Sequence record: PV682947.1 | Length of the DNA stretch: 64,000 nucleotides | DNA from: Escherichia phage WPEC4 | Reading direction: 5' to 3' (one strand) | Part shown: positions 32,444 to 35,186 of the stretch, one piece after another | How the letters are laid out: each line of letters begins with the position of its first letter | Numbering within the stretch: the first letter of the stretch is position 1 | Made by a program: the position numbers and the translations under genes | The notes under the pieces: generated by a model | Seen by the model: only the letters and a program-made list of their open reading frames with translations | Databases searched by the model: none | Told to the model about the DNA's origin: nothing

Positions 32444-33006
32444 TGGGTTGTTTTAGTTTCTTGTGCAAAGAATCGGGCAAAGCTGCCCTTTCTACTTCTT
32501 TCGACGGATCGCCTTGCTACCTCTTTCTTTTGAAGGACGGTGTTGTTATTGAAGAAATGTATGGCAACTATGATAGCTACGGCTGTGTTTTCTCTGGGAA
32601 GGAGGATGAAAATGGCGTTCGTGAACGATTTGAATGGGCTATGGACTGGAGTAAGGTTTGTGATTTGATGCATTCCTCGAATCCAAGGGACGGTATCGCT
32701 ATGGTGCTGGAAGAGTATTTTACAGGTGAAATTCCTACAGAACAATCTGACGGAGATCCTAATCAAGGTTGGGGTGATGGTGAAGAAGATCCAGATTGTT
32801 TTTTCAGCACAGAAAAGAATAAGTTTAAACGTGTTGACAACCCTTATCACAAAGTGCATAATACTCTCATTGAAACAGAAGATGACAAGATGGAAATTGA
32901 AGAAGATGATCCTCTTGTAACACTTCCTATAAGTGAGTTACAAAAGATCACTAAAGAAGCTTACGATTTAGGCTTCAAAATTGGTAGAGGAGGTATGCGT
33001 GTTTAG
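32443..33006 (+). CDS. hypothetical protein
   Basis: 187-aa ORF. Confidence 0.4.
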   Translation: MGCFSFLCKESGKAALSTSFDGSPCYLFLLKDGVVIEEMYGNYDSYGCVFSGKEDENGVRERFEWAMDWSKVCDLMHSSNPRDGIAMVLEEYFTGEIPTEQSDGDPNQGWGDGEEDPDCFFSTEKNKFKRVDNPYHKVHNTLIETEDDKMEIEEDDPLVTLPISELQKITKEAYDLGFKIGRGGMRV

Positions 33007-33277
33007 ATTCAATATTCAAGAAGAAAAGTGTCAGGATTTACCTATTGCTTTCGAAGACCTTGGCATAGGGGACACATTCATGTATTATGCTGCCTATGAA
33101 GACGCAGGGTTGGATACCTACCGTAACTTGGTGTTCATTAAAAGTTCCCCAAACAGTGCGATCTGTATTAGTGGATCACTATCACAACGAGGCTATACTC
33201 ATTGCATCCCACCAGACACAAATATGGTGGAAGTAGATTTAGAAGTTACCAATATCACACTTAAGAAGGAGAAATAA
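32999..33277 (+). CDS. small protein, paralog A1 (partner of vWA gene)
   Basis: GTG start after AGAGGAGG; shares GDTF.Y...GLD...VEL.VT.ITLK pattern with 34299..34568. Confidence 0.4.
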   Translation: MFRFNIQEEKCQDLPIAFEDLGIGDTFMYYAAYEDAGLDTYRNLVFIKSSPNSAICISGSLSQRGYTHCIPPDTNMVEVDLEVTNITLKKEK

Positions 33278-33278
33278 T

Positions 33279-34073
33279 ATGTCCGAGAAAATCAGCCTGA
33301 AAAAACGTCAAGAAAACCTTGCTTTCTCTCTGAAAAAGAATAAGAACCTGAACGAAGGTAAGATTGTTCTTCGTGTAGCTTGTGCGCTAGATATTTCTGG
33401 TAGTATGCATGGTCTATATGCTCGTGGGGTAGTGAGTGATTTTGTAGGTAAACTGCTTCCTTTTGGTATGCTGTTCGATGATAATGAACAGATTGATATG
33501 TGGGCCTTCAATACGAGTTCTCAAGAGCTTACTCCAGCAACAGCAGACGTTTACGATGATTATGTTGGTAAGTGTATGCGTAATGTTCGCATTGGAGGTG
33601 GAACAAATTACGCTCCTGTAATGGCAGATATCTATGATGAGTATTTTGGCACTGTTACCAAATATGTTACCACTAAACAAGTGGTACAAGAGCAGGCTCC
33701 AAAGAAAGGCTTCTTTAATCGTCTGCTTGGTAAAACTGAAACAGTATCTGTAGAGCGTGAAAAGGTTGTAGCTGTATCTGAACCAAGTGCTGACGTTACT
33801 CCTGGTGTTGTATTCTTCCAGACAGACGGTGAGAATGGTGATCCTAGTGCTGTTCGTCGTCTTATTGAAGAGAATAAGAATAAACCTATTTATTGGTTCA
33901 TGGTTGGCGTTGGTAATGAGAAGTTTGGCTTCCTGAAAGAACTGGCAAATGCTTACGATAATGTTGGTTTTATTGGCATTAAAGATTTAGACTTGACAGA
34001 TTCAGAGCTTTATGACAAACTCTTATCTGAAGAGTTCGGAGAGTGGGTTGTTAAAGTAGGTGCTAAAAAATGA
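33279..34073 (+). CDS. vWA-domain protein (TerY-like) with TerD-like ISLKK leader
   Basis: MIDAS motif ALDISGSM, later GGGTNYAPV and FFQTDGENG; N-terminus MSEKISLKK resembles TerD start. Confidence 0.55.
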   Translation: MSEKISLKKRQENLAFSLKKNKNLNEGKIVLRVACALDISGSMHGLYARGVVSDFVGKLLPFGMLFDDNEQIDMWAFNTSSQELTPATADVYDDYVGKCMRNVRIGGGTNYAPVMADIYDEYFGTVTKYVTTKQVVQEQAPKKGFFNRLLGKTETVSVEREKVVAVSEPSADVTPGVVFFQTDGENGDPSAVRRLIEENKNKPIYWFMVGVGNEKFGFLKELANAYDNVGFIGIKDLDLTDSELYDKLLSEEFGEWVVKVGAKK

Positions 34074-34318
34074 TCGACGAGCTTGCCTCTCAAGTCGTAG
34101 AAAATTATTGGCGCGAGAGAGAAGCTTTCATTATGCGCAGTCTCAAAGAATACTTCATTGGGACTGTGCGGATGGAAGATATTGTAAGTAGAGTAGAGAT
34201 TCATGTATGGCCCGATTATGAAGAATGGGTTGACAAAGAAAATGAAAATGCTATAATTCTTCGTATAGACAAACCGGAGATAACATTAGGAGGAAGAAGT
34301 GTTAAACTTCGAAATTGA
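34070..34318 (+). CDS. hypothetical protein
   Basis: 82-aa ORF. Confidence 0.35.
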   Translation: MIDELASQVVENYWREREAFIMRSLKEYFIGTVRMEDIVSRVEIHVWPDYEEWVDKENENAIILRIDKPEITLGGRSVKLRN

Positions 34319-34568
34319 TGAGCAAAAAGTAAATAAACGATGCCTTACCATTAAAGATTTGGATGTAGGAGATACTTTCGTCTATGAAAATGCATTTGAC
34401 GAAAATGGTTTAGACCTTAGTGAAGTCATTGTTTATTTAAAAGTAGATGATGGGGAAAATGATTATTCTGCTGTAGAACTAAACCATCATGCACAATTAG
34501 TAACAATCCAAAACACATCTAAGCTTTTGGAAGTAGAATTGACTGTAACTGGTATTACACTTAAATAA
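34299..34568 (+). CDS. small protein, paralog A2 (partner of TerD gene)
   Basis: 89 aa; paralog of 32999..33277. Confidence 0.4.
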   Translation: MLNFEIDEQKVNKRCLTIKDLDVGDTFVYENAFDENGLDLSEVIVYLKVDDGENDYSAVELNHHAQLVTIQNTSKLLEVELTVTGITLK

Positions 34569-34583
34569 TAGAGGAGACAAAAG

Positions 34584-35186
34584 ATGACTGATAAAATTTC
34601 CCTGAAAAAAGGCTCTAGCGAAAAAATTTCCCTGAAGAAAGTTGCTCCGGCTCTGAAAGAACTGCGCCTGGAATTCTCTTGGAAATCTAATTCTAAACTG
34701 GATCTGGATGTAAGTGCACTGGTTTGTCGTCATAATGCTGCTGGCAATCCTGAAATGCTGTCTGCACGTCACCTGGTTTGCTATGCTAACAAGTTTGATC
34801 CTGAACGTTCTACTTTCGCTGGCGACGATGTTCGTGATGGGACTGGCAGCATGGAGCAGATTGATATTACTCTGGCTAAAATCTCTCCTGATGCACAAGA
34901 GATTGCCTTTGTTCTGACCATTGATGATGATACAGGTCTGAAACGTTTTGGTCATGCTTCTGAAGGTATGCTTAAAATCTTTGACTCCGAACGTAATGTG
35001 GAAATTCTGGATTTTGACTTCCTGGCTCCTGAAGTAGCTGGCAACACAATCTGCCACGTGGCCTCCTTGGTTCGTGAAGATGGGGAATGGAAGCTGAAAG
35101 CATATGGTGTAGGTAAAGCGGGTCTGGATATTTGTGATGTGGTGATGGCCTTCGGTGGTAAAAAAGAATGGTATGAATGTCCATAA
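34584..35186 (+). CDS. TerD-family (tellurium-resistance-like, Ca-binding) protein
   Basis: MTDKISLKKGSSEKISLKK..., LDLDVSALVC, GDDVRDGTGSMEQID, AFVLTIDDD fit TerD domain pattern. Confidence 0.7.
   Translation: MTDKISLKKGSSEKISLKKVAPALKELRLEFSWKSNSKLDLDVSALVCRHNAAGNPEMLSARHLVCYANKFDPERSTFAGDDVRDGTGSMEQIDITLAKISPDAQEIAFVLTIDDDTGLKRFGHASEGMLKIFDSERNVEILDFDFLAPEVAGNTICHVASLVREDGEWKLKAYGVGKAGLDICDVVMAFGGKKEWYECP

Follow-up and report, generated by a model that had tools for sequence, protein, structure and literature searches.

In Escherichia phage WPEC4 (PV682947.1), two similar small genes stand next to two proteins of the Ter type: small A (32999..33277) lies directly ahead of a TerF-type vWA protein (33279..34073) and small B (34299..34568) directly ahead of a TerD-family protein (34584..35186). 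How did this repeated arrangement come about, and what do the small proteins do beside their Ter neighbours? Both questions were addressed in a 64-kb stretch of the phage, here called the window, whose coordinates count from its first letter. Stephanstirmvirinae such as phAPEC8 and phi92 carry a Ter ('tellurite resistance'/envelope-stress) gene set, and the region studied corresponds to its TelA ... vWA(TerF-type) ... TerD part. We thus deal with a known phage Ter cluster carrying a lineage-specific, duplicated accessory gene whose product is predicted to be SH3-like.

Ter/TelA/TerD systems are common in bacteria, plasmids and phages and are tied to tellurite, colicin and phage resistance; their mechanism is obscure. 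Phage Ter sets (TelA, TerF-type vWA, TerD and TerC) have already been described and proposed to serve superinfection competition or stress tolerance (PMC7824862, Iyer et al. 2021; PMC8386662, on Klebsiella phage phiKp34), and the small genes before vWA and TerD go unmentioned in both. Our finding is therefore a modest refinement, as the cluster was already known and the idea of a duplicated two-gene cassette, raised by the original prediction for this DNA, fails. A small gene that always lies directly upstream of TerD or of a TerF-type vWA protein in tractable, well-studied coliphages nevertheless offers a simple experimental handle.

Two paralogous small genes

Both small genes lie on the + strand, start with GTG and are preceded by a Shine-Dalgarno sequence (GAGGAGG 5 nt before 32999, GGAGGA 4 nt before 34299). 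They encode 92 and 89 residues (small B with an isoelectric point of 4.3) and coincide with annotated coding sequences in relatives, for example 5424-5702 and 6724-6993 in SKA64 (L001). Both products are full-length members of phrog_11278, an unannotated PHROG entry (small A: 8.4e-47, positions 1-92 of 92; small B: 4.5e-44, positions 1-89 of 92). In an ungapped alignment they share 29/89 identities (33%; BLASTP E value 7e-16), and their Smith-Waterman score of 127 compares with 25.3 ± 4.6 in 5000 shuffles (z=22). The claim that the two open reading frames (ORFs) are clear paralogs is thus borne out, and so are the shared motifs quoted in its support: GDTF.Y, GLD and VE(V)xLxVTxITLK are present in both proteins and conserved family-wide. 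Each small gene was also correctly placed directly upstream of a protein starting M..KISLKK, with 1 nt between the end of small A and the vWA start codon (33279) and 15 nt between the end of small B and the TerD start codon (34584).

Duplication of the small gene alone

Relatives of the window show three gene orders. A single small gene precedes vWA and TerD (small-vWA-TerD) in phi92 (gp174, gp173 and gp172, respectively), Klebsiella phage 05F01 and the metagenomic loci L007-L009, and a single small gene lies between them (vWA-small-TerD) in L004-L006; the order small A-vWA-82-residue ORF-small B-TerD is found only in phAPEC8-like lineages (the window, phiWec179, L011/L013/L014). In a neighbour-joining tree, the small proteins cluster according to position: one clade comes from upstream of vWA, one from the pre-TerD position in Phapecoctavirus, and one comprises the metagenomic proteins encoded between vWA and TerD. 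A and B are each monophyletic across three divergent lineages. Gene order and tree together show that vWA-then-TerD is the older pair, and that the small gene alone was duplicated, before the phAPEC8-like lineages split. Besides the small genes, no ORF of the cluster has a paralog there.

The original prediction had instead proposed that a two-gene partner-plus-effector cassette was duplicated in tandem, its second gene diverging from one ancestor into vWA and TerD. Near-equal spacing would fit such an event (1300 nt between the small starts, 1305 nt between the effector starts), as would the exact SEKISLKK octapeptide in both effectors, which exceeds compositional expectation. We nonetheless consider it highly improbable. 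The vWA-TerD pair occurs without a second small gene in phi92, 05F01 and L007, and L004-6 have only the middle one. The two effectors belong to different families, PF10138 (vWA) and PF02342 (TerD), with different folds, and their models show no common core. Furthermore, the leader that they share is kept across both families, in TerD-vWA fusions and bacterial members too. At the DNA level, similarity between the two units is limited to fragments of 14-39 nt with 73-77% identity at the small-gene end, the Shine-Dalgarno sequence and the leader; no collinear similarity extends across the units beyond what identical peptides and the Shine-Dalgarno sequence produce, and in the shared leader codons the synonymous sites differ (ATC AGC vs ATT TCC). 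Only the small genes, then, are paralogous.

A variant of this idea, in which the 82-residue ORF would be a paralog of some ORF upstream of small A and an 'X + small' unit would have been copied, was rejected as well, the best match (E value 0.015-0.2) not being significant.

A second, unrelated small family occupies the same positions. In two distant phages, proteins of 110 residues (L016:3653-3985) and 116 residues (L017:4744-5094), 27% identical to each other (E value 1e-6), are encoded in the pre-vWA slot of one and in the vWA-TerD gap of the other, mirroring the alternation seen for phrog_11278, to which neither protein has detectable homology. This alternation lends independent support to the idea of a small-gene slot.

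The two Ter proteins and their shared leader

The vWA protein (33279..34073, + strand, 264 residues) matches PF10138 at 8.9e-38 (130.9 bits against a cutoff of 29.4). Its AlphaFold2 (AF2) model (predicted local distance difference test score, pLDDT, 92.2; predicted template-modelling score 0.84) shows a vWA domain of the copine/integrin type, and Foldseek searches with this model retrieved RGLG1/2, BON1/copine and integrin I domains (best E value 4e-6). The metal-ion-dependent adhesion site (MIDAS; DxSxS...T...D) is intact, being formed by D38, S40, S42, T109 and D183; among 48 vWA homologs, D38, S42, T109 and D183 are invariant and S40 is kept in at least 90%. Fold, complete MIDAS and PF10138 match are thus shared with the C-terminal vWA domain of TerF and with copine-type vWA domains (RGLG1/2, BON1). 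In contrast to TerF, the window protein stands alone, without an N-terminal TerD domain, and it differs from both groups by its basic leader, which is conserved and predicted to form a helix, and by a 45-residue β-hairpin arm.

This arm (residues 125-169, window 33651-33785) is a long two-stranded β-hairpin with a short tip helix that is inserted in the fold and splits the Pfam match into two stretches; its tip motif KGFxxxLxGK is conserved across the family. Judging from the model, the arm could be a membrane- or partner-contacting element.

The TerD-family protein (34584..35186, + strand, 200 residues) matches PF02342 at 1.5e-28 (100 bits, cutoff 25.3), and its residues 5-179 cover profile positions 3-177 of 187. 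Among solved structures, phmmer finds 2KXT/2KXV (1e-15; 1.1e-15 for 2KXT) and 3IBZ (2e-14), with the leader included in the alignment. Compared with the Klebsiella/E. coli (2KXT/2KXV) and Streptomyces (3IBZ) proteins, the phage TerD domain is full length and includes the doubled N-terminal phi-S-L-x-K motif, KISLKKGSSEKISLKK, which aligns to VSLSKGG--NVSLSK and is invariant in 8 phage TerDs. A difference concerns the acidic Ca2+-binding stretch: GDNRTGEGDGDDE of 2KXT reads GDDVRDGTGSMEQ in the window protein (residues 79-93, window 34818-34862). Three Asp positions are replaced, in a form conserved in the 8 phage TerDs, while G80, D82, D85, G86, G88 and E91 are kept in the phage clade. The acidic Ca2+-binding motif of TerD known from work on 2KXT is GDN(R)TGEGDGDDE.

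What, then, accounts for the leader that had suggested a common origin of the two effectors? The vWA and TerD proteins share SEKISLKK exactly, and the basic N-terminal leader of vWA reads KISLKK...SLKK. The first 40 residues of both proteins give a local alignment score of 49 against 22.9 ± 4.5 for shuffled sequences, with 5/20000 shuffles reaching 49, and BLASTP aligns the two proteins with an E value of 3e-4. In a six-frame translation of the window, [IV]SL[KST]K occurs 5 times, 3 of them at the vWA/TerD N-termini. The ISLKK similarity therefore exceeds what composition would give, in line with the original prediction, but ends after the first ~25 residues, beyond which vWA and TerD do not align.

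The motif is not limited to these phages. In 48 vWA-TerF-like proteins, including a Neobacillus protein and three TerD-vWA fusions, L7, L18 and K20 of the leader are invariant and K9 is nearly so; the fusions carry the motif at the junction of their two domains, after TerD and before vWA (...VSLAKQARISLEKAG...). Canonical bacterial TerD starts VSLSKGGNVSLSK, as in 2KXT, aligned to phage KISLKKGSSEKISLKK. These comparisons show the KISLKK leader to be an intrinsic, family-wide trait of both vWA-TerF-like and TerD proteins, and no trace of cassette duplication. The first 30 residues of vWA and TerD carry a net charge of +3.5 to +4.5.

Range, fold and charge of the small family

A hidden Markov model of the small family, run against 1.84 billion cluster representatives, yielded only some ten stand-alone proteins, 87-93 residues long, next to spurious multi-repeat matches. 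The latter, giant proteins of 800-4400 residues, were rejected as homologs of the small proteins, their Ig V-set, DUF11 and DUF5666 repeats piling up weak partial matches. A profile search of 5.8 billion proteins returned 24 clusters, of 87-93 residues except for two fragments; none is named, and all come from phage-sized contigs (the longest 140-152 kb). Bacterial members appeared in neither search. With small B alone, a protein word-index search retrieved only near-identical proteins, and PADLOC, NCBIfam, Pfam and PDB sequence searches with the small proteins gave nothing significant. For phrog_11278, the strict linkage to vWA-TerF-like/TerD genes and the split into two paralogs are newly established here.

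Small A is modelled as an SH3-like β-barrel (pLDDT 84.8), and the BFVD model of small B (phAPEC8 K7QLS7) superposes on it with a template-modelling score of 0.75-0.78. The small protein is predicted to be an SH3-like β-barrel. It has no detectable sequence relationship to known barrels of that kind (the ribosomal L2 SH3-like domain, FeoA, the C-terminal domain of DtxR/IdeR, KOW, Tudor and HspQ/YccV), from which it differs by an additional helix following strand 1 and by an amphipathic C-terminal segment that is conserved. Every member of the family is acidic, with isoelectric points of 4.3-5.5 and net charges of -2.4 to -11.3, and for this reason nucleic-acid binding of the KOW or L2 type is unlikely. 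The possibility that the small protein is a fragment or relative of TerD was rejected: hhalign assigns it a probability of 0.3%, and the predicted fold differs.

Expression signals

Small A is translationally coupled to vWA: its last codons, AAG GAG, are the vWA Shine-Dalgarno sequence, and 1 nt separates the two genes. Upstream of small A, a sigma-70-like promoter (TTGACA-17-CATAAT; 11/12; 32834..32862, + strand) lies within a 187-residue ORF, 136 nt before the small gene; it is one of 9 sites of at least 11/12 in the window and is conserved in phi92 and SKA64.

Small B has a stronger signal. A sigma-70 promoter with an extended -10 TG, TTGACA-16-(TGc)TATAAT (34230..34257, + strand), is located 41 nt upstream of it, in the 3' end of the 82-residue ORF, and is the sole 12/12 site in the window, against a chance expectation of 0.13. 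Both hexamers are perfectly kept in phiWec179, L011, L014 and SKA64 while the spacer varies, and the codons overlapping them change amino acids among relatives (V/I/L-D-K, A/V-I-I/M), which argues for selection on the promoter itself. In phi92, which has no small B, a hairpin and a 10/12 promoter stand directly before TerD. Together, the two promoters suggest that TerD generally has its own promoter, and that small B was placed between promoter and TerD in phAPEC8-like phages. This implies co-transcription of small B and TerD as a putative bicistron with small B as the first cistron. Transcription probably ends at a GC-rich 8-bp hairpin directly after TerD (35204..35223), although the hairpin has no canonical T-tract on the + strand.

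A programmed frameshift or readthrough that would fuse a small protein to its neighbour was rejected, since the phase varies (+1 in the window and phi92, -1 in L007). From small B into TerD the read is in frame, with two stop codons and a 6-residue spacer. Ordinary re-initiation explains the Shine-Dalgarno sequence.

Each small gene directly precedes a gene of the Ter family, either next to the promoter or through translational coupling, which makes a partner-plus-effector organisation, as the original prediction had it, plausible, even though its duplication as a two-gene unit does not stand.

A role for the small proteins

On balance, we lean towards the explanation that the lineage-restricted small barrels serve the vWA and TerD proteins of the known Ter cluster as dedicated accessory partners. 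The descriptive part of this explanation is very probably correct; a physical partnership of the small proteins with the Ter proteins is conceivable, though we hold it with some doubt. Stephanstirmvirinae recruited an acidic protein of ~90 residues, the predicted barrel of phrog_11278, into a conserved vWA-then-TerD pair, and each small protein would be made together with the downstream Ter protein as its dedicated accessory subunit, be it an adaptor, a chaperone or a regulator. The acidic barrel may dock on the Lys-rich leader via its conserved acidic G[DE]TF...YE[DE]xGLD surface. The module would be transcribed by the host RNA polymerase and might act at the inner membrane with TelA (in relatives with TerC too) and, going by the literature, serve envelope or ion stress handling or superinfection exclusion. 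Binding of the small proteins to the conserved N-terminal leader, if it occurs, could reveal how the assembly or regulation of Ter proteins works.

In all three gene orders, the small gene strictly keeps its place close beside vWA or TerD. Several points weigh against a dedicated partnership, however. Adjacency alone is weak evidence, because the family is confined to one phage subfamily with generally high synteny. Bacterial TerD-vWA operons, such as that of Neobacillus (L018), do without such a small protein, and in neither of the large searches (1.84 billion and 5.8 billion) was a small domain found fused to TerD or vWA. Residues 7-20 of the vWA leader are modelled by AF2 as an amphipathic helix, while the leader residues of TerD belong, as strands, to its β-sandwich, as in 2KXT, so that a single common mode of leader recognition is not obviously available. 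Finally, the thought that the C-terminal ITLK tail of the small proteins mimics the ISLKK leader in a β-zipper had to be given up, as 1015-3528/5000 shuffles score as high (p ~0.2-0.7).

Could the small genes be functionally unlinked to the Ter proteins altogether, that is, accessory ('moron'-type) genes in permissive slots of a syntenic early region, with an adjacency that reflects inherited order? The restriction to one phage subfamily and the lack of fusions would agree with this, as would the unrelated ORFs that more distant phages hold in the slots, the empty slots of bacteria and the richness of the cluster in other small ORFs of unassigned function. Still, we regard this reading as rather unlikely. 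In every locus with visible context, across three arrangements and ~30-70% protein divergence, a small gene lies directly upstream of vWA/TerD with an overlap or a gap of 1-15 nt, whereas other neighbours (the 187-, 132- and 82-residue ORFs) come and go. Moreover, both paralogs were retained after an old duplication, and a conserved consensus promoter puts small B and TerD in one unit.

A more ambitious form of the partnership would make the phi-S-L-K-K leader a previously unrecognised common docking or assembly signal of TerD and TerF-type vWA proteins, with the small proteins as leader-specific adaptors. A single-copy ancestor would have acted for vWA and TerD alike, as in phi92 or L004; after the duplication in phAPEC8-like phages, one copy would have specialised on vWA and the other on TerD. 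Such adaptors might set the time and place at which vWA and TerD come together with TelA/TerC at the membrane, and the second small family of L016/L017 would be an analogous solution. Taken as a whole, we judge this extension to be distinctly unlikely.

Another reading would turn the small proteins from subunits into inhibitors or decoys, which hold the phage Ter proteins inactive until needed or bind host TerD/TerF leaders to neutralise the host ter system. Acidic small proteins facing basic leaders that are conserved in host-type TerD are consistent with this, as are host-type promoters, which suit an early function, and the description of the host ter system as anti-phage (PMC7824862). We consider it improbable, the proposal being entirely inferential. 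Coupling to the phage vWA and TerD genes suggests stoichiometric co-production over host targeting. In addition, the genes are conserved although most laboratory hosts of these phages (K-12) are not known to carry a ter operon.

The surrounding Ter cluster

By megablast against GenBank phages, Escherichia phages WPEC1 and WPEC6 are 100% identical to window 30000-36000, and phAPEC8 and some 60 other members of Phapecoctavirus (Stephanstirmvirinae) are ~97.5% identical. The + strand block 30519-35806 encodes, in this order, TelA, ORFs of 65, 57, 132 and 187 residues, small A, the vWA-TerF-like protein, the 82-residue ORF, small B, TerD and a SleB-type endolysin. The TelA-family protein (30519..31685, + strand; PF05816 3.8e-33, 115.4 bits against a cutoff of 30) is the first recognisable Ter gene of the cluster; relatives have it annotated as tellurite resistance/TelA, and its true start is likely the ATG near 30624.

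TelA, vWA-TerF-like and TerD, all above their Pfam gathering scores, are the same families as in known phage clusters and in bacterial terZABCDEF/telAB systems, and the vWA-TerD adjacency matches that of bacterial or prophage operons such as Neobacillus L018. Unlike these known systems, the window has no TerC, TerB or PRTase/HAD signal-synthesis genes in the locus and thus no complete terZABCDEF-type system, while relatives carry TerC upstream of TelA; phi92 TerC, SprT and their neighbouring proteins had no tblastn match in the whole window. What the window cluster adds are the lineage-specific small genes before vWA and TerD, and the endolysin gene that follows directly. This SleB-like cell-wall hydrolase (35285..35806, + strand; PF07486 1.8e-17) comes directly after TerD in nearly all of these phage clusters (the window, L007, L008, L011, L014 and L017), an adjacency that hints at a link of the Ter module to envelope or lysis. 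A gene of ~200-220 residues, with no function assigned, is conserved after TerD in phi92 (gp171, L002:6788-7390), L016 (5428-6051) and L006 (939-1610), the L016 and L006 proteins being 35% identical; it is absent from the window.

Where the TerC-bearing segment would lie, ~48 nt upstream of the likely TelA ATG, synteny breaks at 30576/30577. Window 26000-30576, which includes the tRNA block, matches the + strand of WPEC6 at 23634-28210 with 100% identity, and from 30577 onward the window matches WPEC6 from 117002 downward on the - strand. In phAPEC8-type genomes the two flanking segments are ~55 kb apart, and TerC and SprT precede TelA there. The breakpoint is either a real rearrangement or an assembly join. 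Immediately upstream of it, 10 tRNA genes (Met x2, Arg, Ser, Asn, Thr, Gly, Gln, Pro, Ile) occupy 28068-29993 on the + strand. The GC skew flips sign near 26 kb and again near 50 kb, tracking gene orientation.

The two ORFs that carry the promoters also differ in range. The 82-residue ORF (34070..34318, + strand; phrog_22387) is restricted to lineages with small B, its Wec179 and L011 orthologs being 58-60% identical. The 187-residue ORF (32443..33006, + strand; phrog_14928, 2e-125) overlaps the start of small A by 8 nt; orthologs precede small A in phi92 (gp175) and L007, and L011 has none. A natural deletion variant of window 32443-33277, the metagenomic product P0073 (55 residues), joins residues 1-23 of the 187-residue ORF in frame to the last 32 of small A and is missing most of both.

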